A DNA stretch of 64,000 bases from an uncultured Acidobacteriota bacterium (GCA_963764715.1 CAVXTP010000022.1:275735-339734), one strand, 5' to 3'; shown: positions 1,057 through 22,594, numbered from the stretch's first letter. Program-made: numbers and translations. The notes: a model not told the origin generated them from the letters alone.

Positions 1057-1991
1057 TGGACGACACCGTTCCGTTCCCCGCGGCCGAGGCCGTGGAGGCG
1101 GAGAGAAAACCTTCGCGGCGCCGCCGGGGCGGCGCGCGGCGGCACAAGGCCTTCCCCGCGCCGGCCGAGGAGCCGGCCGCGGCGGCCCCGCCGGCGCCCG
1201 CGCCCTCCGTGCCGGCGTCGATGAACGTGAGCGCGGGCCCTCCCGCCCGGGCGAGCGTCGACCAGCGCCTCGCGCTCTTCATCGACTTCGAGAACATCGC
1301 CCTCGGCGTGCGCGACGCCCAGTACAAGAAGTTCGACATCCACCTCGTGCTCCAGCGGCTGATCGAGAAGGGCCGCATCGTGTACAAGAAGGCCTACTCG
1401 GACTGGACCCGCTACTCGGAGTACAAGCGGGAGTTCCACGAGGCCGCGATCGAGCTGATCGACATTCCCCAGCGCAACTACTCGGCCAAGAACTCCGCCG
1501 ACATCCGGATGGTCGTCGACGCGATGGACCTCGTGGCGTCGAAGGGCCACATCACGACGTTCGTGATCTGCTCCGGCGACTCCGACTTCTCGCCGCTCGT
1601 CTCCAAGCTCAAGGAGAACGACAAGAGCGTCATCGGCGTCGGCGTGAAGAACTCGACGTCGAACCTTCTGATCTCCAACTGCGACGAGTTCATCTTCTAC
1701 GAGGACCTCGTCCGGGAGACGCGGGCGCTGCCGTCGATCGACAACCTGCCCAAGAAGAAGCAGGAGGTCTTCCGGCTCGTCATCGACTCGATCCAGGCGC
1801 TCGGGCGCGAGAACTACGACGTCATCTGGGGCTCGATGGTCAAGCAGACGATGCAGCGCAAGCAGCCGTACTTCAACGAGTCCTACTACGGCTACAAGTC
1901 GTTCTCGGAGCTCCTTGAGGACGCCGAGCGCCACGGCATCCTGTCGATGAAGAAGGACGCGAAGAGCGGCGGCTACGTGGTCTCGGCCTGA
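1053..1991 (+). CDS. NYN-domain (LabA-like) ribonuclease-family protein with C-terminal OST-HTH/LOTUS domain
   Basis: Real start at MMDDTV inside ORF 669..1991 (ATG 1053, overlapping thioesterase stop). Region LFIDFENI...VICSGDSDFSPLV matches the NYN/LabA core; the C-terminal part resembles OST-HTH. Confidence 0.75.
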   Translation: MMDDTVPFPAAEAVEAERKPSRRRRGGARRHKAFPAPAEEPAAAAPPAPAPSVPASMNVSAGPPARASVDQRLALFIDFENIALGVRDAQYKKFDIHLVLQRLIEKGRIVYKKAYSDWTRYSEYKREFHEAAIELIDIPQRNYSAKNSADIRMVVDAMDLVASKGHITTFVICSGDSDFSPLVSKLKENDKSVIGVGVKNSTSNLLISNCDEFIFYEDLVRETRALPSIDNLPKKKQEVFRLVIDSIQALGRENYDVIWGSMVKQTMQRKQPYFNESYYGYKSFSELLEDAERHGILSMKKDAKSGGYVVSA

Positions 1992-2009
1992 GGGCGCGCG
2001 GCGCCCGGG

Positions 2010-2927
2010 CTACTTGCGGCGGAGAACGACGCGGTCGCTCGCGCCCGCCGGCTGCGAGATCGTGACGGCGACGTTCAGCCCGACGAAGTCGGCGGCGCCG
2101 GAGAGGTCCCAGACGAGGTTCCGGAACCCGCGCAGCGAGCTGTCGGGCCCGGGGTGGATGACCTTCGACAGGGCGTCCGACCCCCGCGGGGCGGCGTAGG
2201 CCGGCGAGAGGTAGAGGTACGACAGAAAGCCGGTGGCGTTGACGCCGGCCTGGACGAGGTAGTCGGGCTCCCGGGACTCGAGCAGGAGATAGGTCGTCTC
2301 CTCGGGGCTCCGCCGCTGGCCTTCGATGACCTTCCAGGTCCGCTCGCGCCGCGGCATCCACGGCGCGAACGGGATGAAGTCGATCGCGACGCCGGCGCCG
2401 GCCGGGGAGGAAGCCAGCGCGGCGGCGAGCTCACGGACCCGGCGCCCGCCGTCGGGAACCGTCAGGTACCCGGCGCCCGCTCCGCCGCGACCCGGGTCGG
2501 TGAGGGTGACTCCCGCGGAGACCACGTTGCCCGCGCGGTCCGTCTCGACGAAGACCTCGCGGAGGGCCGGCCGCGGAGGCGTCCCGGCGATCGTCGTGGC
2601 GATCTTGCCTTCCCACCGCCCGGTCAGGTCGAGTGCCCAGGGCTCGGGCGAGGTCGAGGGCGGCGGCGCGCCCACGTCCGCGGTGCCCGCGCTCCGGGAT
2701 CCCCAGAGGAGGACGCCCGTGATGACGGCGAGCGCGAGGGCCGCGAGGACCAGGAGGTACTGGCGCGGGATCGCGGCCAGGATGGCCCCCGGCGAGGACG
2801 GCGCGGCGGGCGGCGGCGGGGAGACGGGCTCGGAGGGCGTGGGCCGCTCGAGGCTCTTCTTGCACTTGAGGCATTTCGCCGCGGGGATCTGCGTAAACCC
2901 GCAGTGAGGACACGTCACCCAGGCCAT
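2010..2927 (-). CDS. zinc-ribbon membrane-anchored hypothetical protein
   Basis: N-terminal CPHCG...CLKCKK zinc ribbon, Pro-rich linker, one TM helix (LLVLAALALAVITGVLLW), ~200-aa extracytoplasmic domain. Confidence 0.6.
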   Translation of the reverse strand: MAWVTCPHCGFTQIPAAKCLKCKKSLERPTPSEPVSPPPPAAPSSPGAILAAIPRQYLLVLAALALAVITGVLLWGSRSAGTADVGAPPPSTSPEPWALDLTGRWEGKIATTIAGTPPRPALREVFVETDRAGNVVSAGVTLTDPGRGGAGAGYLTVPDGGRRVRELAAALASSPAGAGVAIDFIPFAPWMPRRERTWKVIEGQRRSPEETTYLLLESREPDYLVQAGVNATGFLSYLYLSPAYAAPRGSDALSKVIHPGPDSSLRGFRNLVWDLSGAADFVGLNVAVTISQPAGASDRVVLRRK

Positions 2928-3038
2928 GGGTGAATGGTAACCGATCGTGCGTAAGTCTTGGTGCAGTCAGTAGTAAGCGGTAAGCCGGGGGATGGCTGTC
3001 GCGACGCTTACTGCTTACCGCCTACGGCTTACTGACTC

Positions 3039-4100
3039 TCAGATCTCCCGGAAGAAAAACCTGTCCAACACCGACATCCGCTCCTGGAGCTGCTTCGGAT
3101 CCGGATCCATGAGCCAGAGCGCGGCGTGGATCGAGGAGGCGAGGGAGTTGCCGTCCTGCGGCGTGAAGCAGAAACCGACGATCTCGTGGCCGCCGGGGAC
3201 CGCGATCGTGGGGGAGGCGATGACGGCCTGGGACAGGATGCGGCCGTAGTACCCGTGGTCGCGCCCGAACGAGAAGATCTGGTTGGCCGAGCGGCGCTCG
3301 GTCACCGCGATCCGGCGGTTGGCCTTGAGCTTCGAGAGCACCTGCTCCTTCGACGTCGGTTCGGACACGTCCATGTCGAACCACAGGGCGTGCATGTACT
3401 GCGTGTTCATCTTCATCGCGGACGAGAAGATCGGCGGCTCCCATCCGATCGTCGAGAGCAGCGCCGACGCGTCGCGGGCGTGGTGCGTGCCGAACTCCGG
3501 GTCGTCGTGCTTGCCGACCGACGGCGCGGGCGCGAAGCCCGAGTCCTGCGACACGTCGTTCGCCCGGCGCATGCAGACGAAGCGGCCGCGCGTCAGGATC
3601 TTGCCGCCCGCGTCGTTGGTCCCGAGCGTCTTGATGAGGCAGGAGATGTTGTGGGTGTTGCAGGAGACGATCTGGAGAAAGCGGTCCTGCCCGGGGATGA
3701 GGGCCTCGTCGTTGATCCCCATGGCGTACATCTTTCCGAACCCGAACTCGCTGCCCTGGGCGAGGAACCCCCGTGGGCCTGAGATCTTCTCGTAGACCTT
3801 CTTGTTCTCGTTGCCGGCCGGGGTGCAGTCGATTACGACGGTCGCCCGCTCGAGGGCCGGGCCGGCCTCGTGCGAGACCTTGTGCCCGAGGGCCTCGAAG
3901 TCGGCGAGCTTGTCGGAATCGACCGCGAGCTTCGCCCCGCGCGCCATGAGGTGATTGACCTTCGCGCGCTCGGTGGTCATCGGCGTCCGCTTGTGGAAGG
4001 TGACCTCGTCGACGCCGAGGTGCTTGCCGAAGTCGGTGAAGAGACCGATCAGCGGCTCTCCGATCGTGCCCGTCCCGACGATGTGGACGATCCGTTTCAT
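3039..4100 (-). CDS. type II (archaeal-type) glyceraldehyde-3-phosphate dehydrogenase family oxidoreductase
   Basis: N-terminal Rossmann GTGTIG; VIDCTPAG; catalytic-Cys block IVSCNTHNISCLIKTL (compare archaeal GAPDH VVSCNTTGLCRTL); RRANDV and HHARD blocks also collinear with archaeal GAPDH. Confidence 0.65.
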   Translation of the reverse strand: MKRIVHIVGTGTIGEPLIGLFTDFGKHLGVDEVTFHKRTPMTTERAKVNHLMARGAKLAVDSDKLADFEALGHKVSHEAGPALERATVVIDCTPAGNENKKVYEKISGPRGFLAQGSEFGFGKMYAMGINDEALIPGQDRFLQIVSCNTHNISCLIKTLGTNDAGGKILTRGRFVCMRRANDVSQDSGFAPAPSVGKHDDPEFGTHHARDASALLSTIGWEPPIFSSAMKMNTQYMHALWFDMDVSEPTSKEQVLSKLKANRRIAVTERRSANQIFSFGRDHGYYGRILSQAVIASPTIAVPGGHEIVGFCFTPQDGNSLASSIHAALWLMDPDPKQLQERMSVLDRFFFREI

Positions 4101-4186
4101 CGCGTTCTCCTGTCGATCGAAGGCGTTTGGGACCCGGAACGGCGGGAAGGATACGATGAGACGGGCGATTCGCCAACCGGAGGGCG

Positions 4187-4840
4187 ATGGTGGCGGGCAG
4201 GCTTCGTTCCGTGACGTTTCGCGGTCCCGCCGGGGCCCTCGAGGGCCTCTGGAAGGAGGCGTCGCAACCGCGCCGGGGCTCGGCGGTCTTCGCGCACCCC
4301 CATCCCATGCACGGCGGCACGCTTCACAACAAGGTCGTCTACCGCGCGGCGCAGGCCCTGGCGCGGTCCGGGTGGGAGACGCTCCGGTTCAACTTCCGGG
4401 GCGTCGGGGTGTCGGAGGGCCGGTACGACGCGGGCCGCGGCGAGGTCGAAGACTTCCGGGCGGCCCTCGACGAGGCCGAGCGCGCGGCCGGCCGGCCGAT
4501 CGTCGCGGGAGGCTTCTCGTTCGGCTCGGCCGTCGGCCTGAAAGCGGCGGCGGGGGATCCGCGGGTCGCGGCGTTCGTCGCGCTCGGCGTGCCGCTCGCG
4601 ACCGAGTCCGGGCGCATGGTGCCGGTGCCCTCGGTCCCGTCGCTCTTCGTCGTCGGCGAGAACGACCGCTTCGGGCCGCCCGAGGACCTCGCCCGGTTCC
4701 TGGCCGGGCGTCAACGGATGGTCGTCATCCCCGGAGCCGACCACTTCTTCGAAAGCCAGCTCGAGCTGCTCGGCGAGACGATCCTGGAGTTTCTCGCGTC
4801 GCTTCCGGCGGCGACGCCGGCGGCGGAAGCACCGGCGTGA
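4187..4840 (+). CDS. alpha/beta-fold hydrolase (COG2945-like)
   Basis: 217 aa; HPHPMHGGT and GFSFGS (nucleophile elbow G-x-S-x-G) motifs. Confidence 0.75.
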   Translation: MVAGRLRSVTFRGPAGALEGLWKEASQPRRGSAVFAHPHPMHGGTLHNKVVYRAAQALARSGWETLRFNFRGVGVSEGRYDAGRGEVEDFRAALDEAERAAGRPIVAGGFSFGSAVGLKAAAGDPRVAAFVALGVPLATESGRMVPVPSVPSLFVVGENDRFGPPEDLARFLAGRQRMVVIPGADHFFESQLELLGETILEFLASLPAATPAAEAPA

Positions 4841-5397
4841 GCGCGGGAGCCCGGACGCTCTCGGAGGAGGCACGGCGGGACCTGCTGCGGCTGGCCCGCA
4901 CGAGCCTCGAGGCGCACTTCCTCGGCGAGCCCTCTCCGCGGCTCGCGTCGGACCGCGCGGAGGCCTTCGGGGAGCCCCGGGGCCTCTTCGTCACGCTGTG
5001 GAAGGACGGGGACCTGCGCGGCTGCATCGGGACGCTCGCTCCGCACGGCGACCTGACGCGGGTCGTCGCCGAATACGCGCGACGCGCGGCCTTCGAGGAT
5101 CCGAGGTTTGCGCCCCTCGACGCCGTCGAGCTTCCCGCCTGCCGCCTCGAGATCTCGGTCCTGACGGCGCCCCAGCCGATCGCGGGCCTCCACGACATCG
5201 AGATCGGGCGGGACGGCCTGATCCTCGAGAGCCGCGGGCGGCGCGGGCTGCTCCTGCCCCAGGTCGCGACGGAGTGGGGCTTCGACCGCGAACGGTTCGT
5301 CCAGGAGGTCTCGCGCAAGGCCGGGCTGCCCCCGGATGCGTGGAAGGACCCGGGCTCCCGGGTCTGGGTCTTTCAGGCGGAGGTGTTCTCGGAATGA
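4837..5397 (+). CDS. AMMECR1 domain protein
   Basis: GTG start overlapping upstream stop (GTGA); conserved AMMECR1 block LRGCIGTL and C-terminal LLPQVATEWGFDRE. Confidence 0.75.
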   Translation: MSAGARTLSEEARRDLLRLARTSLEAHFLGEPSPRLASDRAEAFGEPRGLFVTLWKDGDLRGCIGTLAPHGDLTRVVAEYARRAAFEDPRFAPLDAVELPACRLEISVLTAPQPIAGLHDIEIGRDGLILESRGRRGLLLPQVATEWGFDRERFVQEVSRKAGLPPDAWKDPGSRVWVFQAEVFSE

Positions 5398-5466
5398 AGG
5401 GCATCGGCAACCGGCAGAAAAAGACCGTCCGACCCCGGAAGGCCTGGGTCGCGCCGAAGCCCGCCC

Positions 5467-6225
5467 CTAGAGCCGGCGAAGCGAAGGCGAGTAGAGGAGC
5501 AGCGCCGTGGCCACGGCCGCGTTCAAAGAATCGACCGGGGCCCGCATCGGGATCGTGAGCCGGCGGTCGAGATACCGGTAGGCTCCGGCCGGCAGCCCCG
5601 TGCCCTCGGCGCCGACCACGACGACCGAGCGCGGGTCGAGCGGCGCCTCGAACACGTTCTCTCCTCCGACGGCCGTGGCCCCGCAGACGGGCCGGCCGGC
5701 GGCCTTCGCGTCGGCGGCGAAGGGCTCGAACGAGACGCGGCCCGAGACCGGCAGGCGCAGGACGCTGCCGGCGCTTCCGCGCACGGCGCGAGGATGGAAG
5801 AAGTCGGCCGTTCCGGGCGCGGCCACGACCCCGGCGCCCCCGGCGGCCTCGGCCACGCGGACGATGGCCCCCAGGTTGCCCGGGTCCTGGACGCCGAACG
5901 CGAAGACGATGGGCCCTTCCCGCGCCAGGATCTCCGCGACCGGGACGTCCCGTCGCTTCGCGACGGCGAGCAGGTGCTGCGGCGTGCGGGCGTCGGCGAG
6001 ACGCTCGAGCACGGCGCGGGAGACGAGGCGCGGGTGCGACGCGGTCAGCGCCGAGAGACGGCCGGGCCGGATGCTTTCGTCGTGAAGGACGTGCTCGAGC
6101 GCGATTCCCGCGGCGACGGCGTCGAGAATCGCCTTTTCGCCCTCGAGCAGGAGATAGGTGCGCTCCTCGAGGTGGCGCGCGATGTCGCGGATCAGAGGGT
6201 TGGACGGAGACTCGATCGCGGGCAC
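5467..6225 (-). CDS. TrmH/SpoU-family RNA 2'-O-methyltransferase
   Basis: 252 aa; SPOUT motifs QDPGNLGAIVR and LGAEGTGL, C-terminal IPM...SLNAAVA. Confidence 0.75.
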   Translation of the reverse strand: MPAIESPSNPLIRDIARHLEERTYLLLEGEKAILDAVAAGIALEHVLHDESIRPGRLSALTASHPRLVSRAVLERLADARTPQHLLAVAKRRDVPVAEILAREGPIVFAFGVQDPGNLGAIVRVAEAAGGAGVVAAPGTADFFHPRAVRGSAGSVLRLPVSGRVSFEPFAADAKAAGRPVCGATAVGGENVFEAPLDPRSVVVVGAEGTGLPAGAYRYLDRRLTIPMRAPVDSLNAAVATALLLYSPSLRRL

Positions 6226-6251
6226 GACGGCCCATGCTATAACCGCGCGCC

Positions 6252-7448
6252 ATGAAGTGGCTCCGCGGCGAAAAGCTCCTCGCGGCCGCGGCGGAGCACG
6301 GGCCGCCCGGGTCGGCGCTGTCGGCGCTCTGGACCTTCCCGGCGATGATCGGGGCGGCCTTCGTCGTGGCCTGGGGAGCGGAGGCCGCCGAGTTCCTCAT
6401 CTCGCAGGGCCTCGCCCTCGCGATCCTCGCCCTCATCCAGACGATGCCCGAGTTCGCGGTCGAGGCCGTCATCGCCTGGAAGGCCGGCAAGAACCCGGAC
6501 ATGGTGCACCTGGCGATCGCCAACTTCACCGGCAGCCTGCGCCTCCTGACCGGCTTCGGCTGGCCCATGATCTACGCGGTCGCCGCCTACTTCTCGCGCC
6601 GCCGCCGCGGCCGCAAGCTGGGCGCCCTCCACCTCCACGACGAGCATGCCGTCGAGGTCATCGGCCTCCTGCCGCCCCTCGCCTACTTCGTCCTGGTCTG
6701 GGCGAAGGGCAACCTCTCCCTCGTCGACGCGGCCGTGCTGACGGTGACCTACGTGGTCTACCTCTTCGTCCTGCTCCGGATGCCTCCTCGCGAGGACTCG
6801 GAGGAGGAGGACGAGGAAGTCCCGCGGGTGTCGCGCTGGGCCCTGTCCTTCTCGGGCTGGAAGCGGTGGGCCGCGGTGCTCGGGCTGTTCGTCCTCGGGG
6901 GCGCCGTGATCTTCGTCGTCGCCGAGCCCTTCCTCAACTCGATGCTCGCCGTCGCGGTCAGCCTCGGCATCTCGCAGTTCACCTTCATCCAGTGGGTCGC
7001 GCCCTTCATCTCGGAGTTCCCGGAGAAGACCTCCGCCTTCGTGTGGGCCCGCCGGATCACCCGGGCCCCCGTGGCCCTGATGAACATGGTGTCGTCGAAC
7101 ATCAACCAGTGGGGGGTCCTCTCGGGGCTTCTCGCCGTCGTTTACTGCTGGAGCCACGGGAGCACGGAGCCGCTGCCGTTCGACGATTTCCAGCGGCTCG
7201 AGATCCTGCTGACGATCCTCCAGGCCTTCCTGGGGTGGATCTTCCTCGCGTCGATGACCCTCGAGTGGTACGAGGCGGCCGGGCTCTTCGTGCTCTGGAT
7301 CGTCCAGTTCTTCTTCCCGTCGCTCCGCCATACGATGATCTGGGTCTACGGAGGCTGGATCGGCGTGGAGCTCCTCCTCGTGGCGCTGGGCCGAAAACAG
7401 TTCCGGGCTTTCGGCGCGTTCGCCCGCTCCTGGAAGGGGAGGCGTTGA
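6252..7448 (+). CDS. CaCA-family cation/Ca2+ exchanger-like integral membrane protein
   Basis: 398 aa, about 10 TM helices in two halves separated by an acidic loop (EDSEEEDEE). Confidence 0.65.
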   Translation: MKWLRGEKLLAAAAEHGPPGSALSALWTFPAMIGAAFVVAWGAEAAEFLISQGLALAILALIQTMPEFAVEAVIAWKAGKNPDMVHLAIANFTGSLRLLTGFGWPMIYAVAAYFSRRRRGRKLGALHLHDEHAVEVIGLLPPLAYFVLVWAKGNLSLVDAAVLTVTYVVYLFVLLRMPPREDSEEEDEEVPRVSRWALSFSGWKRWAAVLGLFVLGGAVIFVVAEPFLNSMLAVAVSLGISQFTFIQWVAPFISEFPEKTSAFVWARRITRAPVALMNMVSSNINQWGVLSGLLAVVYCWSHGSTEPLPFDDFQRLEILLTILQAFLGWIFLASMTLEWYEAAGLFVLWIVQFFFPSLRHTMIWVYGGWIGVELLLVALGRKQFRAFGAFARSWKGRR

Positions 7449-8636
7449 TGGATCTGCGTCTCTCGCGCCGGATCGCGGCCCTCGCCCCGTCGTCCACGAC
7501 CTCGGCCGGCCGCAAGGCCAAGGCGCTGGCCGCCTCGGGGGTCGACGTCGTGGACCTCTCGATCGGCGAGCCCGACTTCGCGACCCCCGCCCACGTCGGC
7601 CGCGCCGGAGTCCGAGCGATCGAGAACGGCCGCACGAAGTACACCGACGTCGCGGGGGAGGCGGCCCTCCGGGACGCGATCGCCGCCAAGTACGCCCGGG
7701 AGCAGAACGCGAAGGTCGGCCGCGACAGCATCATCGTGACGGCCGGGGCCAAGCAGGCCGTGTTCAACGTCTGCATGGCCCTCTTCGACGAGGGCGACGA
7801 CGTGGCGCTCTTCTCGCCCTACTGGGTCTCGTTTCCCGAGATGGTCCGGCTGACCGGGGCGCGGCCCCTGTTCGTCGAAACGTCCCTCGAGGACGGCTGG
7901 CACGCGCGGGCGAGGTTGCTCGAGGGGGCCGGCGTGGAGCGGGTGCGGGGAGTCATCCTCAACTCGCCCAACAACCCGACCGGGGCGGTCGTCGACGCCG
8001 CGGAGCTCTCGCGGATCGTCGAGTGGTGCGCCGCCCGCCAGGCGTGGCTCATCTACGACGAGACCTACGACCGCTTTCTCTACGACGGCCGGTCGCACGC
8101 GTCGGCGGCGGCCCGGCGCCCGGACTACGAGCGGGTCGTCGTGACCGGGGCGGCGTCGAAAACCTTCGCGATGACGGGCTGGCGCCTCGGGTGGGCCATC
8201 GGGCCGCCCGAATTGATCACGGCGCTCGCTTCGTTCCAGAGCCACACGACCTCGAACGCCTCGTCGATCTCCCAGGCGGCGGCGCTCGAGGCCCTGACGG
8301 ATCTCGATGGCTCCGCGGCCTCGGTCGACGACATGCTGTCCCACTACGAGACCCGCCGGACAGGCGATGGTCGAGGGCCTCGCGTCGATCCCGAACGTCC
8401 AGTGTCCGATGCCCGAGGGCGCGTTTTACGCTTTCGCCGACGTTTCGCGCCTCTACGAGCGCAAGGGCGTCCGGGGCTCGGCCGACTTCTGCGACCGGCT
8501 CCTCCAGGAGGCGCACGTGGCGGCCGTGCCGGGCGACGCCTTCGGCGACGACCGCTGCGTCCGGTTCTCCTTCGCGACGAAGACGGACCGAATCCGCGAG
8601 GGCGTGCGCCGGATCGCGGAGTGGACGGGGCGCTAG
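7448..8636 (+). pseudogene. class I PLP aminotransferase (aspartate aminotransferase-like) with a +1 indel near 8360 splitting it into two frames
   Basis: N-terminal 300 aa (SIGEPDF, NSPNNPTG, SKTFAMTGWRLGW with PLP-Lys) in the frame of ORF 6158..8755; C-terminal 90 aa (QAMVEGL...VRFSFA) in ORF 8307..8636. The junction YETRR / QAMVEGL is restored by removing one A at cggAcaggcg. Confidence 0.55.
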
Positions 8637-8652
8637 CCTCGACGGCCCGCGC

Positions 8653-9585
8653 TCAGGGAATCGGGGTGGCCGGGGCGGCGCCGACGGGCGCCCGACGGAT
8701 CGGAGCCGGGGCGGAGAGGGCGCGCTCCGCCCGCTGGTCCAGGAACTCGAGGTAGGAGCCCCACGCGGCGACGCGCACCGCCGAGCGCACCCAGAGGACC
8801 AAGAACTGGAGGAGGAAGAGCCCCGCGATCGCGATCGGCGACGCGGCCGACACCGACCAGGCCAGGGCGAAGAGACCGAACCATACGGCACCGCCCGCGA
8901 CGAGCCAGAAGGCAAAGAGCCCGAGGGCCTCCCCCCGGGAGCCGCGCAGCGCCCGTCCGGCGAACCTCCAGGCGCGCCAGGCTCCGATCGCGGGCACGTA
9001 ACGCCGCGCGGCGCGCGCGAAATCGTAGTGGAGCGAGAGGACTCCCCACAGGAACACCGCGAGGACGCCGAGCCCCCAGTGCCAGGCCGTGCGGCTCGCG
9101 GCGTCGGGCGGAACGTTCTCGAAGATCTTCTTCGCGGCCGCGAACGCCCCGCCGAAGAGCGCGCCGAAGACCACGACGAGGAAGACCGCGAAGAGAAAGA
9201 AGCACTTGACGTTGTGCCAGAAGTTCCGCCGGGCGGGCTCGAAGAACTGCCCGAATGCGAACGGCCCCCGCCCGAGGACACCGATGATTCCGCCGGCGAA
9301 GAACATCTGGAGAACGACCGTGAGCAGGAGGCCGTACCGGGAGCCCGACAGGACGCCGGTCACCGCTGCCGCCTCGAACCGGAGGAAGTCGAAGAAGTCG
9401 GTCGGCGCCGCCGTCGGGTGGTTCCTCAGGAAATGATCGCCCGCGAGCGTTCCGCCCAGCTCCTTCACGAATACGCCGTGGAGGGGCGCGGCCGTCCCGG
9501 CGGCGACGACCGCCGTCGTCACCGCCAGCAGGAGGATGAGCTTGCCGTGACCGAGCGCGCGGAATCCGGCCGCGAGACTTCTCAT
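8653..9585 (-). CDS. polytopic membrane protein, unknown function
   Basis: Start MRSLAAGF (ATG 9585) overlaps the stop of the M1 peptidase gene (ATGA); 8-9 hydrophobic helices. Confidence 0.55.
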   Translation of the reverse strand: MRSLAAGFRALGHGKLILLLAVTTAVVAAGTAAPLHGVFVKELGGTLAGDHFLRNHPTAAPTDFFDFLRFEAAAVTGVLSGSRYGLLLTVVLQMFFAGGIIGVLGRGPFAFGQFFEPARRNFWHNVKCFFLFAVFLVVVFGALFGGAFAAAKKIFENVPPDAASRTAWHWGLGVLAVFLWGVLSLHYDFARAARRYVPAIGAWRAWRFAGRALRGSRGEALGLFAFWLVAGGAVWFGLFALAWSVSAASPIAIAGLFLLQFLVLWVRSAVRVAAWGSYLEFLDQRAERALSAPAPIRRAPVGAAPATPIP

Positions 9586-11771: not shown

Positions 11772-12779
11772 ATGCGGACCGCGCTTCTCACGGGAGGAAC
11801 GGGCTTCGTGGGCAGCCACGTCGCGCGCGCGCTCGTCCGGGAAGGCTGGTCGGTCCGCCTTCTCGCGCGGGACCCGGGGCGGGTCGATCCCGCCCTCGTC
11901 TCGGGTCAGCCGATCGAAGTCCTCGCCGGCAGCCTCGACGATCGTCCGTCCCTCGCGCGGGCCGTCGCGGGAGTCGGCGCGATCGTCCACGTGGCCGGCC
12001 TGACCAAGGCGCGCACGCTCTCGGAATATCGGGACGTCAACGTCGGCGGAACCGAGCGCCTGATCGAAGCGGCGCGGCAGGCGTCGCCCGAAGCGCACTT
12101 CGTCCTGGTGTCGAGCCAGGCGGCGGCCGGCCCCTCGACGGGTGGTCGGCCGATCGGACACGCGGACCCGGCACGGCCGATCTCGTGGTACGGGGTCTCC
12201 AAGCGGGAGGGCGAGAAGGCGGTGGAGCGTGCCTGGCCGGGGCCGTGGACCGTCCTGCGTCCGGGAGTGGTTTACGGGCCCGGCGACCGCGGTCTTTTCG
12301 TCTATTTCAAGATGGCCTCGACCGGGTGGATCCCGGTCCCCGCCGGCAGGACGCGGATCCAGCTGATCGGCGCCGAGCGCGCCGCCGTCGCGATCGCGCG
12401 GGCCGCCGCGGCGCCCCAGCTCGCCCGCCAGGTCCGGTTCCTGAGCGACCCCGGCGCCGTTTCGGTCGGCGCGCTGGCCTCCGCGATCGCGGGGGCCTCG
12501 GGCCGCCGGGGACGGATGATTCACGTTCCCGACGTCGTCGTGCGGGCCCTCGGGCGGGCGGAAACCCTCGTGGAGACCGTCACCCGGCGGTCCCGCCCGT
12601 TCAACGCCGACAAGGCCCGGGAGCTCCTGGCGGGCGACTGGATCTGCGACGCCGGCCCGGTCGAGCGGGAGCTCTCCCTGCCGCCCCCCGTGCCCCTGCC
12701 GGAGGGCCTCGCCGCCGCCTGGGCCTGGTACCGGGGGGCCGGCTGGCTCCCGGAAGGCCCCCGGGGCGCGGCTTTGTAA
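11772..12779 (+). CDS. NAD(P)-dependent epimerase/dehydratase-family SDR (NDUFA9-like); candidate ceramide/3-ketosphinganine reductase
   Basis: Start MRTALLTGGTGFVGSHV at the tail of the antisense artefact ORF 9657..12779; Rossmann GxxGxxG; YxxxK-type SDR. Confidence 0.7.
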   Translation: MRTALLTGGTGFVGSHVARALVREGWSVRLLARDPGRVDPALVSGQPIEVLAGSLDDRPSLARAVAGVGAIVHVAGLTKARTLSEYRDVNVGGTERLIEAARQASPEAHFVLVSSQAAAGPSTGGRPIGHADPARPISWYGVSKREGEKAVERAWPGPWTVLRPGVVYGPGDRGLFVYFKMASTGWIPVPAGRTRIQLIGAERAAVAIARAAAAPQLARQVRFLSDPGAVSVGALASAIAGASGRRGRMIHVPDVVVRALGRAETLVETVTRRSRPFNADKARELLAGDWICDAGPVERELSLPPPVPLPEGLAAAWAWYRGAGWLPEGPRGAAL

Positions 12780-12836
12780 AATTTGCTAAGATCCGGGGCG
12801 CTGATTCGTCAGACGCTCACAAGGCAGGGGGAAGCA

Positions 12837-14078
12837 ATGAGCAAGGTCGCCCGGGCGATCCGACCGGAGACGGTGGGGACAGCTCCGGTTTTCGAGAAGT
12901 GCTACCGGTACGAAGATGCGACGCGGGTCCGTCAGACCGGCTATTACTCCTTCTTCCGCGTGATCGAGTCCGCCCAGGACCCGGAGGTCGTCCTGGACGG
13001 GCGGCGCCTCGTCATGATGGGCTCGAACAACTACCTCGGGCTCACCAACGATCCCCGCGTCAAGGAAGCCGCGATCGACGCGATCCGGAAGTACGGATCC
13101 GGATGCGCGGGAAGCCGTTTCCTGAACGGAACCCTGGATCTGCACGTCCGTCTCGAGGAGCGCCTCGCCCAGTTCATGCGGCAGGAATCGGCCGTGACGT
13201 TCTCGACCGGCTTCCAGGTCAACCTCGGCGCGATCGCGTGCCTCGTCGGCAAAGGAGACACGGTCTACCTCGACAAGCAGGACCATGCCTGCATCATCGA
13301 CGGCGCCCGGCTGTCCTTCGGCGACGTCAAGAAGTTCAAGCACAGCGACCCGGCCGACCTTCGCCGCCAGATGCGCAACGACGGGGAAGCCAAGGGGCGC
13401 CTCGTCGTGGTCGACGGGGTCTTCTCGATGGAGGGCGACATCGCGCCGCTGCCCGAGATCGTGGCCGTGGCGCGGGAGTTCGCGGCGGGCGTGATGGTCG
13501 ACGACGCCCACGGCATCGGGGTCCTCGGGCCCACCGGCCGGGGCACGGCCGAACATTTCGGCCTCGAGCACGAGGTCGACCTCATCATGGGGACCTTCTC
13601 GAAGTCGATGGCCTCGGTCGGCGGCTTCATCGCGGGCAACGCGACCGTCATCGACTACGTCAAGCACCGCGCCCGGACGCTGATCTTCTCGGCGGCCCCG
13701 CCGCCGGCCTCGGCCGCGGCCGCGCTCGCGACGGTCGAGATCATGGAACGGGAGCCCGAGCGGCGCGAGCGGCTCTGGGAGAACACCCGCTTCTTCGCCG
13801 AGGGCCTCCGCTCGCTCGGCTTCGACACCGGCGAGTCCCGGACCCCCGTCGTTCCCATCGTGGTCGGCGAGGACCTGACGGCGCTCCGGATGGTCCACCG
13901 GCTGCAGGAAGAGGGCGTGTTCGTCAACTGCGTCCTCTCGCCCGCGACGCCGCCGGGCCGGGCCCTGATCCGCACCTCGCTGATGGCGACGCATTCGCGC
14001 GCCCAGCTCGTCCGGGCGCTCGAGGCCTTCGAAAAAGTCGGACGCGAGGTCGGCCTCGTTCGGGTCGCCAGCGTCTGA
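12837..14078 (+). CDS. alpha-oxoamine synthase family (serine palmitoyltransferase / BioF / Kbl-like), PLP-dependent
   Basis: Start MSKVARA with GGGGA RBS; MGSNNYLGL, DDAHGIGVLG, PLP-lysine context GTFSKSMASVGGF. Confidence 0.8.
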   Translation: MSKVARAIRPETVGTAPVFEKCYRYEDATRVRQTGYYSFFRVIESAQDPEVVLDGRRLVMMGSNNYLGLTNDPRVKEAAIDAIRKYGSGCAGSRFLNGTLDLHVRLEERLAQFMRQESAVTFSTGFQVNLGAIACLVGKGDTVYLDKQDHACIIDGARLSFGDVKKFKHSDPADLRRQMRNDGEAKGRLVVVDGVFSMEGDIAPLPEIVAVAREFAAGVMVDDAHGIGVLGPTGRGTAEHFGLEHEVDLIMGTFSKSMASVGGFIAGNATVIDYVKHRARTLIFSAAPPPASAAAALATVEIMEREPERRERLWENTRFFAEGLRSLGFDTGESRTPVVPIVVGEDLTALRMVHRLQEEGVFVNCVLSPATPPGRALIRTSLMATHSRAQLVRALEAFEKVGREVGLVRVASV

Positions 14079-14094
14079 CGGCGCCGCGTCTCCC

Positions 14095-15246
14095 TTGAGC
14101 CCGACTTCCTCCACCGACGTCGTCATCCAGCGGATCGGCCGAACGCGGGCCGACTTGGAGCGGTTCTTCGACGTCGCCGACCGCATCTACGCGGCGGATC
14201 CCAATTTCGTGGCGCCGCTGCGCTCGGACGTCGCCAAGGTCTTCCAGGACGAGAACCCGTTCTTCCGGCACGGCGAGATCCAGCTCTTCGTCGCCCGGCG
14301 GGGCGAGAAGGACGTGGGCCGCGTCGCGGCGATCCTCGACCGCAATCACAACTCCTTCCACGGGGAGAAGGCGGCCTTCTTCGGGTTCTTCGAGACGATC
14401 GACGACCCGGAGGTCGCGGGACGGCTCCTCGACGCGGCCGCGCTCTGGGGGCGCGAGCGCAAGATGACCGTCTTGCGCGGCCCGACGAACCCCACCTTGA
14501 ACGACGAGGCGGGACTCCTCGTCGACGGCTTCGATTCGCCTCCCGTGCTGATGATGACCTACAACCCCCGGTCCTACGCGGCCCTCATCGAGGGCCAGGG
14601 GTTCCACAAGGCCAAGGACCTGCTGGCTTACTGGTTCCCCCTCGAGGAGAAGCCGCTCGAGCGGCTTTCCCGGGTCGCCGACCGGTTCCGGAAGCGGGCG
14701 CCGGACATCGTCGTCCGCAACGTGACGAAGTCCGGCCTGGCGCGGGACCTCGCGAAGATCCGGGAGGTCTACAACGAGGCCTGGGAGAAGAACTGGGGCT
14801 TCGTCCCGATGACCCCCGAGGAGATGGACTTCATGGCCGCGCGGTTGAAGCCCCTCCTCGTCGCCGAGCTGCTCTGGATCGCGGAGGCAAAGAAGCCGGA
14901 CGGCGGGCTCGAGCCGATCGCCTTCATGCTGATGCTGCCGGATTACAACGTCGCGATCGCCCCGACCCGGGGGAGGCTGCTGCCCTTCGGCTGGCTGAAG
15001 TTCCTGCTCGCGCAGCGCAAGATCAAGACCGTGCGCGTCCTGATCCTCGGCGTCAAGCGGCCCTGGCGGATGTCGGGCGTCCAGTCGATCATGATGGCCG
15101 ACTCGCTGCGCTTCCTGCTCGGGAAGGGCTACACCGGGGCGGAAGTCTCGTGGCTCCTCGAGGACAACGAGCTCGTGATCGGGGCCGTCCGCCTCTGGGG
15201 CGGCAGGCTCTACAAGACCTACCGGATCTACGAGAAGCCGCTGTAG
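14095..15246 (+). CDS. GNAT/BioF2-like N-acyltransferase (candidate bacterial ceramide synthase or N-acyl amino acid synthase)
   Basis: 383 aa, 17 nt downstream of the Spt-like gene; architecture and size of the acyltransferases recurrently linked to alpha-oxoamine synthases. Confidence 0.55.
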   Translation: MSPTSSTDVVIQRIGRTRADLERFFDVADRIYAADPNFVAPLRSDVAKVFQDENPFFRHGEIQLFVARRGEKDVGRVAAILDRNHNSFHGEKAAFFGFFETIDDPEVAGRLLDAAALWGRERKMTVLRGPTNPTLNDEAGLLVDGFDSPPVLMMTYNPRSYAALIEGQGFHKAKDLLAYWFPLEEKPLERLSRVADRFRKRAPDIVVRNVTKSGLARDLAKIREVYNEAWEKNWGFVPMTPEEMDFMAARLKPLLVAELLWIAEAKKPDGGLEPIAFMLMLPDYNVAIAPTRGRLLPFGWLKFLLAQRKIKTVRVLILGVKRPWRMSGVQSIMMADSLRFLLGKGYTGAEVSWLLEDNELVIGAVRLWGGRLYKTYRIYEKPL

Positions 15247-15301
15247 GGGCGGGGCTCGTCCCCGCCCTCAGGCGCCGAAGGACAGGCACAAGGCCCGCCC
15301 C

Positions 15302-16195
15302 CTACGCTGTGCTTGGCGCGGAGGCTGAGGCTCGGGCCCGACCGGCCATGATCCGGTCGTAGATCCAGTCCCCGATGGGCACGCTGACGAACGCCAGCGT
15401 CGTCCCCGCGATCAGGTCGATGACGTAGTGGAACCGGCAGAAGACCGTCGAGATGATCAGGCCGGTCGCGATCGGGAGAAGGATCCAGAACACGTCCCGC
15501 GCCCGCTTCCACGCGACGAGCAGCACGGCCACCGAGATCATCGTGTGTCCCGAGGGGAAGACGTCGAGCTTGGTCTTCTCGAGGTGGTTGATGCTGTCGT
15601 TGATGACCCGCGCGACCGGGGACTCGGTCAGCGACTTCGTGTAGAGCGAGGCCTGGGCGAAGCGCGGCCCGAGCGCCGGGATCGTGAAGTAGCCGGCGTA
15701 GGAGACGTAGTAGACGACCATGAGCGTGAACACGTAGCGGCGGGCGGTCGCGCGGTCGCGGGCCCAGAGGACGAGACCGAGCGACAGGGCGATGAAGTAA
15801 TAGGTCGCGTAGAATACGTAGAGGACGTCGTTGACCCCGGGCCGCGCGAACCGCTCCAGCCAGACCGTCACGTCGACGCCGAAGATCGCCCGGTCCGCGG
15901 CGATCAGGAGGTCGTCGCGGGCGCCGCCGCGGGTCGCCATGATGAGGGGCGAGAGGGTGTTGAACAGGATCGGAAGGAAGATGGCGGGGTAGAAGTCGAG
16001 GAAAATAGTCACCGGGGCCGGCAGGTCGTCCTCGCGCTTGGCGAGGGGGACGATCACGCCGATGGCCGCGGCGAGTGCGCCGTAGGCGAGCAGGTTGCCG
16101 TTGGGGTTGCCGAGGCGGTCGTAGAAGATGACCGTCAGGACCGCGAGGATGGCGATCGCACCCAGGTGGATGGCCTCGGTTGGTCGGATGCGCAC
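15302..16195 (-). CDS. PAP2-superfamily lipid phosphatase/phosphotransferase, integral membrane
   Basis: PAP2 signature blocks PSGHT and CRFHYVIDLIAG; 6 TM helices. Confidence 0.75.
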   Translation of the reverse strand: MRIRPTEAIHLGAIAILAVLTVIFYDRLGNPNGNLLAYGALAAAIGVIVPLAKREDDLPAPVTIFLDFYPAIFLPILFNTLSPLIMATRGGARDDLLIAADRAIFGVDVTVWLERFARPGVNDVLYVFYATYYFIALSLGLVLWARDRATARRYVFTLMVVYYVSYAGYFTIPALGPRFAQASLYTKSLTESPVARVINDSINHLEKTKLDVFPSGHTMISVAVLLVAWKRARDVFWILLPIATGLIISTVFCRFHYVIDLIAGTTLAFVSVPIGDWIYDRIMAGRARASASAPSTA

Positions 16196-19945: not shown

Positions 19946-21475
19946 GTGGCGGTCGGGACCGGTCGCTGGCGCACCCTCGGGGCGGGCGCCGTTTCGGGGA
20001 TCCTCTTCGCCCTGGCCTTTCCGCCGTTCGGCTGGGTCGTCCTCCTCCCGCTCGCCTTGATCCCCTGGATCGTCGCGCTCTCCGTCGAAGAGAGCCGCAC
20101 GCGGGCGCTCTTCTCCGGCGTCGTCTTCGCCTTCGCCTACTGGTGCCTCTCGATCCGGTGGATCGCCTACGTCGTGACCGTGTACGGGGGACAGAGCGGG
20201 GTCATGGGGATCGTGAGCCTCGGGCTGACCGCGGCGATCCTGTCGCCGCCCTTCGCGCTGGTGGGCTGGGGCATGGTCGCCGTCGCCCGTCCGGGGCGGG
20301 GCGCGCGTCTCGCGGTCTTCCCGCTGCTGTGGGTCGCGGGAGAGCACCTGCGCACGATCTTCGCCGCTGGATTTCCGTGGAACCTGACGGCGCACGCGCT
20401 CTACCGGCACCCCGTCTGGCTCCAGTCGGCGTCCGTCTGGGGGGTCTACGGCGTCGGGGCCGCCGTCGCGGCCGTCTCGGCGCTGCTCGCCCGGGCCGCC
20501 CGGACGCGCCGGCTTCGGCCCGCCGTCATCGCGGCCGGCCTCGTCCTGGCGTTCGGCGTCTTCGGAGCGATGCGGCTCGGCCGCCCCGGGGAGGCGGGGC
20601 CGGAGCTCCCGGTGGCGCTGCTCCAGCCCAACCTGACGGAGGAGGACCGGTCGACGTCCCGCTCCCGGGTCGACGGCTACCTCGCCGTCCTCGCCCAGCT
20701 CGACGAGGCCGCGCGCCGCGGCGCGGAGCTTCTCGTCGTCCCCGAGTCCACGCTGCCGATCACCTGGCAGGGAAGCGAACGCCTGCGAAGCGATCTCGGC
20801 GCGATCGCCGCGCGCGGCCCGATGATCCTCTTCAACGACTTCGAGGAGGAGAGCGAGGAGCGCTACTTCAACGTCGCGCGGCTCCTGGACCGGAACGGCC
20901 TCGCCGGGCCGCCGTACCGCAAGGTGCACCTGGTGCCCTTCGGCGAGTACGTGCCGCTGCCGCGGCTCTTCTTCTTCGTCCGGAGGATCTCGCGGGCCAT
21001 CGGCGAGTTCACCCCGGCGCCGGGCCCGGTGCTCCTGAGGAGCGGGCCGGTCGCGATCGGCGTCGGCGTCTGCTACGAGATCATCTATCCGTCGCTCGCG
21101 CGCCGCGAGGTCGCCGACGGCGCCAACCTGCTGGCGACGGTCTCGAACGATTCCTGGTACGGGCGGGGCGGCGCGCAGCAGCAGCACTTCGCCGGCGCCC
21201 TCCTGCGCTCGGTCGAGACGGAGCGCTACCTCGTGCGGGCCGCGATCACGGGGATCTCGGGGATCGTCGATTCCCGGGGCCGGATCCTCGCCGAATCCCG
21301 GCCGGACGAGAAGGCCATCGTGTTCGGACGGGTGCGGCTCGAAACGGCGATGACGCCGTGGACGCGCTGGGGCCATCGGCTTCCGGCCGTCGCCGACGCC
21401 GCCGCGCTCGCCGTGCTAATCTTCGGCCTCGCGCGCGCCGGACGCGGCCGCCCGCGACCCATGACCTCCGCATGA
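19946..21475 (+). CDS. lnt: apolipoprotein N-acyltransferase
   Basis: 509 aa; N-terminal multi-TM domain plus C-terminal CN-hydrolase domain (E-K-C triad region VGVCYE); GTG start. Confidence 0.85.
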   Translation: MAVGTGRWRTLGAGAVSGILFALAFPPFGWVVLLPLALIPWIVALSVEESRTRALFSGVVFAFAYWCLSIRWIAYVVTVYGGQSGVMGIVSLGLTAAILSPPFALVGWGMVAVARPGRGARLAVFPLLWVAGEHLRTIFAAGFPWNLTAHALYRHPVWLQSASVWGVYGVGAAVAAVSALLARAARTRRLRPAVIAAGLVLAFGVFGAMRLGRPGEAGPELPVALLQPNLTEEDRSTSRSRVDGYLAVLAQLDEAARRGAELLVVPESTLPITWQGSERLRSDLGAIAARGPMILFNDFEEESEERYFNVARLLDRNGLAGPPYRKVHLVPFGEYVPLPRLFFFVRRISRAIGEFTPAPGPVLLRSGPVAIGVGVCYEIIYPSLARREVADGANLLATVSNDSWYGRGGAQQQHFAGALLRSVETERYLVRAAITGISGIVDSRGRILAESRPDEKAIVFGRVRLETAMTPWTRWGHRLPAVADAAALAVLIFGLARAGRGRPRPMTSA

Positions 21476-22594
21476 CCGAACGCGACGATCTCGTCTCCGC
21501 TCTCGGGGCCGCCTCGGAGCGCCTGCTGGCGCTTCGCGGCTATCTTTGATCAGGACGCCGCGCGGAGCGCGCTCGACGCCCTGAGGGAGAAGGCCGCCGC
21601 GCCCGACTTCTGGTCGCGGCCGGAGGAGGCCCAGGAGAACCAGCGTCAGACCCGGGGGCTCGAAAAGAAGATCGAGAGCGTGAAGCGTCTCGACGATCTT
21701 CGGAGCGAGCTCGAGGCCTTCGCCGAGCTCCTCGGCGAAGGCGAGCCGGCCGACAAGGAGGCCCGGGAATCGCTCGCGGCGGCGACGTCGTTCGCCGACG
21801 AGCTCGAGCTCGCGGTCAAGATGGGCGCGCCCGAGGACGCGAAGAACGCGTGGATGTCGATCCACGCCGGCGCCGGCGGGACGGAGTCCCAGGACTGGGC
21901 CGAGATGCTCCTCCGGATGTACATGCGCTTCGCCGAGTCGCGCGGCTGGAAGGCCGAGCTCATCGACCGGCAGGACGGCGAGGAGGCGGGCATCAAGAGC
22001 GCCACGCTCCACATCGTCGGCGACCACGCCTACGGGTACCTCCGGGGCGAGATGGGCGTCCACCGCCTCGTCCGGATCTCGCCCTTCGACGCGGCGCAGC
22101 GCCGGCACACCTCGTTCGCGTCCGTCTACATGGCCCCCGAGATCGACGACGACATCGAGATCGAGGTCGCCGACAAGGACATCCGCGTGGACACCTATCG
22201 CTCGAGCGGCGCCGGCGGACAGCACGTCAACGTCACGGACTCGGCCGTGCGCATCACCCACCTGCCGACGGGGATCGTCGTGACCTGCCAGAACGAGCGC
22301 AGCCAGGGCCGCAACCGCGAGATGGCGATGCGGGTCCTCAAGGCCCGCCTCTACCAGAAGGCCCTCGACGAGCGCCGCGCCGACGAGGAGAAGCGCGCCG
22401 GAGAAAAGAAGGCGATCGAGTGGGGAAGCCAGATCCGTTCGTACGTCCTCCACCCCTACCGCATGGTCAAGGACCACCGCACGGGCTTCGAGAGCGGCGA
22501 CACGGACCGCGTGCTCGACGGGGGCCTGACGCCCTTCGTGGAGGCCTACCTGAAGTCGGCGGCGGACGGCAGCCGCGCCCGTGCCTCCTCCTGA
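21472..22594 (+). CDS. prfB: peptide chain release factor 2, programmed +1 frameshift: join(21472..21546,21548..22594)
   Basis: Frame 1 MTERDDLVSALGAASERLLALRGYL then in-frame TGA within CTT TGA; +1 frame continues DQDAARSALD... through SPF and GGQ (SGAGGQHVNVTDSAVRITH) motifs; ATG overlaps lnt stop (ATGA). Confidence 0.9.

Follow-up and report, generated by a model that had tools for sequence, protein, structure and literature searches.

We analysed a 64,000-nucleotide stretch of DNA from an uncultured Acidobacteriota bacterium (GCA_963764715.1, CAVXTP010000022.1:275735-339734), referred to here as the window. Its G+C content is about 71%, and its close relatives are metagenome-assembled genomes (MAGs) labelled Thermoanaerobaculia or Acidobacteriota. 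Four adjacent genes in the window encode a short-chain dehydrogenase/reductase (SDR), an alpha-oxoamine synthase (AOS), an N-acyltransferase (NAT in gene orders) and a membrane protein of the PAP2_3 family (Table 1). Judged from sequence, the locus is quite likely a gene cluster for dihydroceramide (sphingolipid) biosynthesis, carried by a Thermoanaerobaculia-like genome. Bacterial sphingolipids were long considered rare, and the pathway of serine palmitoyltransferase (Spt), the bacterial ceramide synthase (bCerS) and the ceramide reductase (CerR) was defined only in 2021-2022. Surveys predict sphingolipid producers in up to 40 phyla (PMC11334938). The pathway itself is a known one: it is established in Caulobacter, and the genes of E. 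coli and B. fragilis are its reported counterparts.

An open reading frame check recovered all four genes at the positions and spacings given in an earlier note on this DNA, and their starts and lengths match gene calls in related contigs. The SDR, AOS and acyltransferase genes are co-directional, lie 57 and 16 nt apart, and probably form a single operon. The PAP2_3 gene converges on the acyltransferase gene, and the two stop codons lie 55 nt apart. Scanning for promoters and terminators gave nothing informative, nor did folding of the region between the convergent genes. The distinctive feature of the locus is a fully contiguous SDR-Spt-bCerS block with a conserved convergent PAP2_3 partner.

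Table 1. Genes of the cluster, with positions counted from the first nucleotide of the window
Gene	Position	Strand	Length	Start codon	Predicted location
SDR	11772-12779	+	335 aa	ATG	soluble
AOS	12837-14078	+	413 aa	ATG	
Acyltransferase	14095-15246	+	383 aa	TTG	
PAP2_3 protein	15302-16195	-	297 aa	GTG	integral membrane

Predicted enzymes of the co-directional trio

The AOS carries the Pfam domain Aminotran_1_2 (193.5 bits). Its top NCBIfam model was the Spt model NF047600 (SerpalmtaseCFB), followed by gly_Cac_T_rel, a BioF/Kbl subfamily (445 bits), Kbl (403 bits) and BioF (399 bits). The NF047600 score of 548.8 bits falls under the equivalog cut-off of 640, and we therefore only infer serine specificity. 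Among PDB chains the Spt of S. multivorum scored highest (449 bits), ahead of Thermus BioF/Kbl (341), Sphingomonas Spt (300), SulA-type cysteate acyltransferase (273), Kbl (272 at most) and BioF (228 at most). The AOS aligned with the crystallised S. multivorum enzyme over 386 residues without gaps at 52% identity, and N64, H150, D222, H225, the Schiff-base lysine K256 and R379 were all conserved.

A neighbour-joining tree was built from E. coli Kbl, E. coli BioF, Thermus BioF/Kbl, three known Spt sequences and 58 acyltransferase-linked AOS sequences. The window AOS fell inside a clade with all known Spt, with bootstrap support of 84/100 against an outgroup of three sequences. The Spt-like assignment made earlier was thus upheld by model ranking, scores against solved structures, tree and conserved residues, and the question of whether the AOS groups with BioF or Kbl was answered in favour of Spt; both candidates were rejected. 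Strong homology indicates that the AOS is an Spt of the Bacteroidota/delta-proteobacterial subgroup.

The identity of the amino acid substrate was considered separately. The cysteate acyl-ACP (acyl carrier protein) transferase SulA of Alistipes shares its fold and conserved catalytic residues with the window AOS, and the triad might use alanine, glycine or cysteate, giving a 1-deoxy-ceramide, an N-acyl aminolipid or a sulfonolipid-like lipid. The sub-cut-off score is compatible with such a substrate, AOS substrate choice is not reliably readable from sequence, and the supplement to PMC11334938 describes 1-deoxyceramides made from alanine by the same enzyme set. However, the AOS keeps every active-site residue of the serine-specific crystallised Spt, and the cysteate acyltransferase score is far below the 449 bits for Spt. 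In addition, Ala286 aligns with Ala274 of the S. multivorum enzyme, at the position where SulA has Lys281. Radka et al. (PMC9304779) identified this lysine as the residue distinguishing sulfonolipid enzymes from Spt, in which it is replaced by alanine. SulA was rejected on these grounds, and a substrate other than serine appears improbable.

The acyltransferase had no Pfam or NCBIfam match of its own at E ≤ 0.01. It had been described as GNAT/BioF2-like, a label that no domain hit in the protein itself bears out but that its relatives and its modelled fold support. Relatives at 40-50% identity carry PF00583 and some carry PF13480, and an AlphaFold2 model built from a diverse alignment was a tandem GNAT (pLDDT 92.9, pTM 0.90). 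A shallow alignment of sequences 80-100% identical gave pLDDT 66 and was discarded. The family comprises 6960 clusters at the 50% identity level with E<1e-3, and an NCBIfam scan of 115 members returned generic GNAT models only and no bCerS model. In the C-terminal domain a CoA-loop-like R325-x-x-G328 was found. The protein is unusually well conserved: among the matches listed, all 120 clusters at the 90% identity level, from soil and other metagenomes, shared 80-100% identity with it, a pattern suggestive of a lineage that is abundant and under strong constraint.

Foldseek comparison of the model with the PDB found no close solved relative. The best matches were tandem GNATs (7q3a, 2wpw and MshD), with FemX more distant; the tandem GNATs named were MAB_4324, a clavulanate-pathway tandem GNAT and MshD. 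TM-scores were about 0.6 for the tandem GNATs and only about 0.4 for FemX, and a FemAB-type assignment was rejected.

Relationship to ceramide synthases was found by tblastn against annotated plasmid and chromid records. E. coli YghO was 33.7% identical to the acyltransferase across 98% of its length (E 3e-62), and an 'N-acetyltransferase' of Sphingomonas parapaucimobilis was 34.5% identical. Identity reached 39% for a Rubrobacter homologue and only 28% for one from Prevotella. E. coli yghO has as neighbours genes for a fatty acyl-AMP ligase, an SDR, an ACP, an AOS and LptG/LptF paralogues. In S. parapaucimobilis the order is CerR-ACP-Spt ... LptF-LptG-desaturase-NAT. This matches the S. wittichii layout from Swit_3897 to Swit_3908, in which Swit_3908 is the counterpart of CC_1154 (PMC11324152), and the S. 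parapaucimobilis protein was therefore taken to occupy the ceramide synthase (Swit_3908/CerS) position. Padilla-Gomez et al. group CC_1154, yghO (ECD_02850) and Swit_3908 as acyltransferase genes needed for dihydroceramide synthesis (PMC9386255). The choice between a FemAB peptidoglycan enzyme and a bCerS/YghO relative, posed by the earlier note, went to the latter on these identities. Sequence and structural model together suggest that the protein is a tandem-GNAT N-acyltransferase of the bCerS/YghO family.

The SDR matched the Pfam families Epimerase (92.8 bits) and 3Beta_HSD and has a Rossmann motif G8GTGFVG14 (GxxGxxG) and a catalytic Y140GVSK144 (YxxxK). It was 28% identical over its full length (317 aa, E 3e-30) to the SDR encoded in the yghO cluster of E. 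coli and 40% identical to the SDR of the Rubrobacter cluster. When the E. coli SDR was used as query, the window SDR gene was the sole match in the window. For both proteins the best PDB match over the full length was 9g83_P, an NDUFA9-type chain (52.8 bits for the window SDR, 52.3 for the E. coli SDR). In the designation 'NDUFA9-like SDR' the SDR family stands, but support for 'NDUFA9-like' is modest, as sugar epimerases reach about the same scores with the window protein. The homology signal to the CerR counterpart is weaker than the corresponding signals for the AOS and the acyltransferase. We regard the protein as a putative extended-SDR, NAD(P)H-dependent reductase that is CerR-like, acting on 3-oxo-ceramide or 3-ketosphinganine.

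In tblastn searches of the window with E. coli and Sphingomonas ACP and with E. coli AasR, LptF2 and LptG2, no homologue of an ACP (AcpR), an acyl-ACP synthetase (AasR) or LptF2/LptG2 was found. The absence of the first two had been noted before and read as the sign of either a partial set or an acyl-CoA donor; the absence stands, and the second reading is the one favoured. Two bacterial Spt subgroups have been described, and a tie to AcpR/AasR exists for the rhodobacterial subgroup but not for the Bacteroidetes/delta-proteobacterial one (PMC9386255). Since the window Spt belongs with the latter, the absence is expected. A partial Caulobacter-type cluster that lost its ACP was rejected. The gene set is probably complete, and by analogy with the Sphingobacterium subgroup the acyl donor is most likely acyl-CoA.

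Recurrence of the gene set and the PAP2_3 partner

Species-representative genomes were scanned for acyltransferase homologues, and 80 loci from many phyla were used for neighbourhood counts. An AOS homologue was present in the fetched locus in 54/80 and within 600 bp of the acyltransferase in 47/80. An SDR was found in 47/80, AOS plus SDR in 46/80, a PAP2 homologue in 28/80, and AOS, SDR and PAP2 together in 21/80. When only the 52 loci flanked by 3 kb or more on each side were counted, 40 had an AOS, 39 an SDR and 21 a PAP2 homologue. Natural AOS-acyltransferase fusions also occur (P0152, 780 aa; P0217, 777 aa; P0222), with AOS parts 48-54% identical to the window Spt and acyltransferase parts 37-43% identical to the window enzyme. 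Given these fusions and the recurrence across phyla, the linkage is not due to chance, and the doubt whether the genes are conserved as a block was settled in favour of conservation.

The set recurred among distant relatives in otherwise unrelated contexts: AOS-NAT with the SDR divergent in KSB1, MlaEFD-AOS-NAT on contig L003, MlaEFD ... AOS-NAT-SDR-PAP2_3-PAP2_3 in Latescibacteria (L005), and SDR, then AOS-NAT and genes for a LolA-like protein and MacB/FtsX on contig L006. Cultured organisms with the triad include Rubrobacter radiotolerans, Streptomyces sp. NBC_01001 and Aureispira anguillae.

These data bear on the possibility that the AOS serves biotin or threonine metabolism as a BioF or Kbl enzyme, the acyltransferase is of FemAB type and their adjacency is coincidental. 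The common fold of all AOS enzymes, the high scores of the BioF and Kbl models (399-403 bits) and the presence of FemX among distant structural matches all lend it something. Spt models and structures nevertheless beat Kbl and BioF by more than 100 bits, the tree puts the AOS within Spt, no tdh or bio genes adjoin it, FemX trails the tandem GNATs in TM-score, and the fusions and the adjacency in 47/80 genomes speak against coincidence. We consider this possibility extremely improbable.

Several other features were seen beside homologues of the cluster. The AOS-NAT pair adjoins MlaE-MlaF-MlaD in L003 (3786-6688) and L005 (3770-6179), and at L006 9255-13356 it adjoins genes for a LolA-like (TP_0789-like) protein and a MacB/FtsX-type ABC transporter. 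Such neighbours suggest dedicated lipid trafficking to the outer membrane; no Mla, LolA-like or MacB/FtsX genes were seen beside the window cluster. An LTA-synthase-family gene follows AOS-NAT-SDR on a Rubrobacter plasmid (L007 9254-11323), as does a condensation-domain gene on a Streptomyces plasmid (L092 8018-9265); these may be alternative tailoring steps in place of PAP2_3. Tandem double copies of the acyltransferase were present in P0121, P0271-P0273 and P0287, at least one of them named Planctomycetaceae. Acyltransferase homologues of 46-51% identity in Verrucomicrobiota and other MAGs (L019-L030) had no AOS or SDR in the fetched flanks; a few of them keep an adjoining PAP2 homologue, and two of the MAGs are labelled Akkermansia muciniphila and Bifidobacterium sp. 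This pattern may reflect mis-binned contigs, dispersed pathways or a different function of this subgroup.

The PAP2_3 protein scored 77.3 bits with PF14378 (PAP2_3; cut-off 27) and 38.8 with PF01569 (PAP2). The convergent PAP2 lipid phosphatase/phosphotransferase described earlier is thus present and can be refined to the Aur1/Ipt1-type PAP2_3 family. The match to the phosphoinositol dihydroceramide synthase model NF052609 was weak, at 21.5 bits against an unreached cut-off of 480. The protein has about six hydrophobic segments. Among 29 cluster-linked homologues, P173xxGPR178, PSxH217 (PSGH217 in the window) and TxxxRxH256YxxD260xxxG were invariant: the histidine of motif C2 and the histidine and aspartate of C3 are kept, and the canonical phosphatase C1 motif KxxxxxxRP is not conserved.

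Homologues of the PAP2_3 protein were counted at a coverage of 50% or more and E<1e-8; in 28 genomes one lay no more than a few hundred bases from the acyltransferase, and these genomes include Acidobacteriota, Verrucomicrobiota, Latescibacterota, Nitrospiraceae and delta-proteobacterial MAGs. A genome is expected to hold no more than a few PAP2 genes, which puts this frequency far above chance. In Latescibacteria (L005) two PAP2_3 genes follow AOS-NAT-SDR, all co-directional. No report of PAP2-Spt-bCerS linkage was found among the papers searched. Bacterial precedent for a head-group step is provided by BT_1522, an AUR1 homologue and phosphoinositol dihydroceramide synthase (PMC9246714).

Outside the cluster, a divergent M1 peptidase gene starts upstream at 11717, and genes for NfeD, an SPFH protein, a SPOR protein, LipA and Lnt lie downstream; none is obviously tied to the cluster. 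A search of the whole 64-kb window revealed neither a tRNA gene nor any Rfam family reaching the gathering score. The prfB gene for release factor 2 (21473-22594, + strand) has a classical programmed +1 frameshift: the N-terminal frame stops after '...RGYL' at CTT TGA (21544-21549), and the +1 frame resumes with 'DQDAARSALD...'.

A proposed pathway and its relation to known systems

In the pathway that we propose, Spt, with pyridoxal phosphate (PLP) on Lys256, would condense L-serine with a long-chain acyl thioester to 3-ketosphinganine, a step suggested by strong homology. The bCerS/YghO-family tandem GNAT would N-acylate the amine to give 3-oxo-ceramide, as family membership, fusions and synteny suggest, and the SDR would reduce the C3 ketone with NAD(P)H to dihydroceramide. 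More tentatively, the PAP2_3 protein might take a phospho-head group from a glycerophospholipid and attach it at the C1 hydroxyl of the ceramide, producing an outer-membrane phosphosphingolipid.

The order of acylation and reduction is debated even in model organisms. In a eukaryote-like order, the SDR would reduce 3-ketosphinganine to sphinganine, which the GNAT would then acylate. Reduction first has been proposed for Caulobacter by Olea-Ozuna et al. (PMC11324152) and reported in some Bacteroides species (bioRxiv 10.1101/2023.05.23.541633), and the window SDR looks cytoplasmic, without a signal peptide, and could meet 3-ketosphinganine directly. On the other hand, cerR mutants of Caulobacter (PMC11087976) and B. 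fragilis (bioRxiv 10.1101/2023.05.23.541633) build up oxidised ceramide, which argues for acylation first. The window sequence itself does not decide the order; we consider reduction first rather unlikely and keep acylation before reduction in the proposed pathway.

Some observations weigh against a ceramide cluster as proposed. The AOS score lies under the equivalog cut-off, the sub-clade joining the AOS to S. multivorum Spt had a bootstrap of just 53/100, and the tree outgroup was small. The acyltransferase is about 34% identical to proteins that are themselves tied to the tested Caulobacter enzyme by orthology and synteny. The SDR shows no hydrophobic segment and no evident signal peptide, its Rossmann motif beginning at residue 8, whereas Caulobacter CerR is periplasmic (PMC11087976); the export signal of CerR is itself undefined.

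The remaining points of this kind concern the PAP2_3 protein: its top solved match is the phosphatase PgpB (E 1.7e-8), its gene is absent from 52/80 related loci, and that gene lies on the strand opposite the trio and hence outside the trio transcript. Together with the low score against the phosphoinositol dihydroceramide synthase model, they would fit an unrelated housekeeping lipid phosphate phosphatase, PgpB-like or undecaprenyl-diphosphate-phosphatase-like, beside a genuine ceramide triad. Such a protein would not readily account for the linkage in 28/80 genomes of several phyla, the paired same-strand genes of Latescibacteria, the Pfam preference for the Aur1/Ipt1-type family or the absence of a conserved C1 motif, and we regard the housekeeping reading as possible but somewhat doubtful. 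A phospho-head-group transferase acting on dihydroceramide is a plausible candidate role, put forward tentatively, with lipid phosphate phosphatase as the alternative. It is conceivable, although we would not presume it, that PAP2_3 proteins found with Spt-bCerS-CerR form an uncharacterised family of bacterial phosphosphingolipid synthases, making for example ceramide phosphoethanolamine or phosphoglycerol from phosphatidylethanolamine or phosphatidylglycerol.

The cluster was compared with characterised systems. The Caulobacter crescentus pathway consists of Spt (CCNA_01220), bCerS (CCNA_01212, CC_1154) and CerR (CCNA_01222, CC_1164). The window shares with it an AOS, a YghO-type tandem GNAT and an NDUFA9-like SDR with the same presumed chemistry, the homology being traced through the E. 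coli and Sphingomonas counterparts. It differs in several respects: the alphaproteobacterial Spt model gave the window Spt 330 bits compared with 549 for the CFB model, AcpR, AasR and LptF2/G2 paralogues are absent, the trio is contiguous where the Caulobacter genes are spread across about 10 genes, and the SDR is without sign of export. The description of the locus as a Caulobacter-type triad is therefore apt for the three enzyme families but not for the Spt, which is of the Bacteroidota/delta-proteobacterial subgroup.

The E. coli BL21-type cluster (aasR-epi-acpR-spt ... yghO) encodes YghO, SDR and Spt proteins 33.7%, 28% and 40% identical to those of the window; unlike the window it has an ACP, an acyl-AMP ligase and LptF/G paralogues, and it has no PAP2_3 gene. 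Some E. coli strains have a full Caulobacter-type set beside glcC, as previously described in BL21(DE3) (PMC9386255), whereas K-12 reportedly lacks the cluster. We observed LptF/G paralogues, Spt, ACP, SDR, acyl-AMP ligase and YghO at 1358-9137 of E. coli record L008 (NZ_MG591698.1), also beside glcC. The closest characterised Spt, that of S. multivorum (PDB 3A2B/8GUH; 52%), belongs to the subgroup without a dedicated ACP. Bacteroidota usually carry the three genes at scattered positions (PMC11334938), with counterparts in Bacteroides fragilis at BF9343_4218 (CerS) and BF9343_4240 (CerR), whereas in the window they are adjacent.

The PAP2_3 protein resembles BT_1522 and yeast AUR1 (inositol phosphoceramide synthase) in its domain, its His/His/Asp set and its linkage to sphingolipid genes. 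The likeness is at the superfamily level only, as the NF052609 score indicates, and no inositol-synthesis genes were seen near the window cluster. Ceramides are reported for Solibacter usitatus, an acidobacterium of the same phylum but of a different class (Halamka et al. 2024, as cited in PMC12619533). Two Bryobacterales MAGs (L061 and L069) hold the same four adjacent gene families, in the order SDR-PAP2_3-NAT-AOS, which differs from that of the window.

With this locus the pathway is represented, in compact and contiguous form, in Thermoanaerobaculia, a soil lineage that is uncultured and apparently abundant, and it bears on how ceramides in soil and sediment lipidomes are read. For biochemistry, tractable material is available in the AOS-acyltransferase fusions and in the triads of cultured Rubrobacter, Streptomyces and Aureispira. 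The sole fresh lead is the Aur1-like PAP2_3 protein, a testable candidate for the head-group step of bacterial phosphosphingolipids. If that role is correct, PAP2_3 would fill a gap in the bacterial pathway of these lineages by providing its head-group step, and soil Thermoanaerobaculia would carry phosphosphingolipids in their outer membrane.

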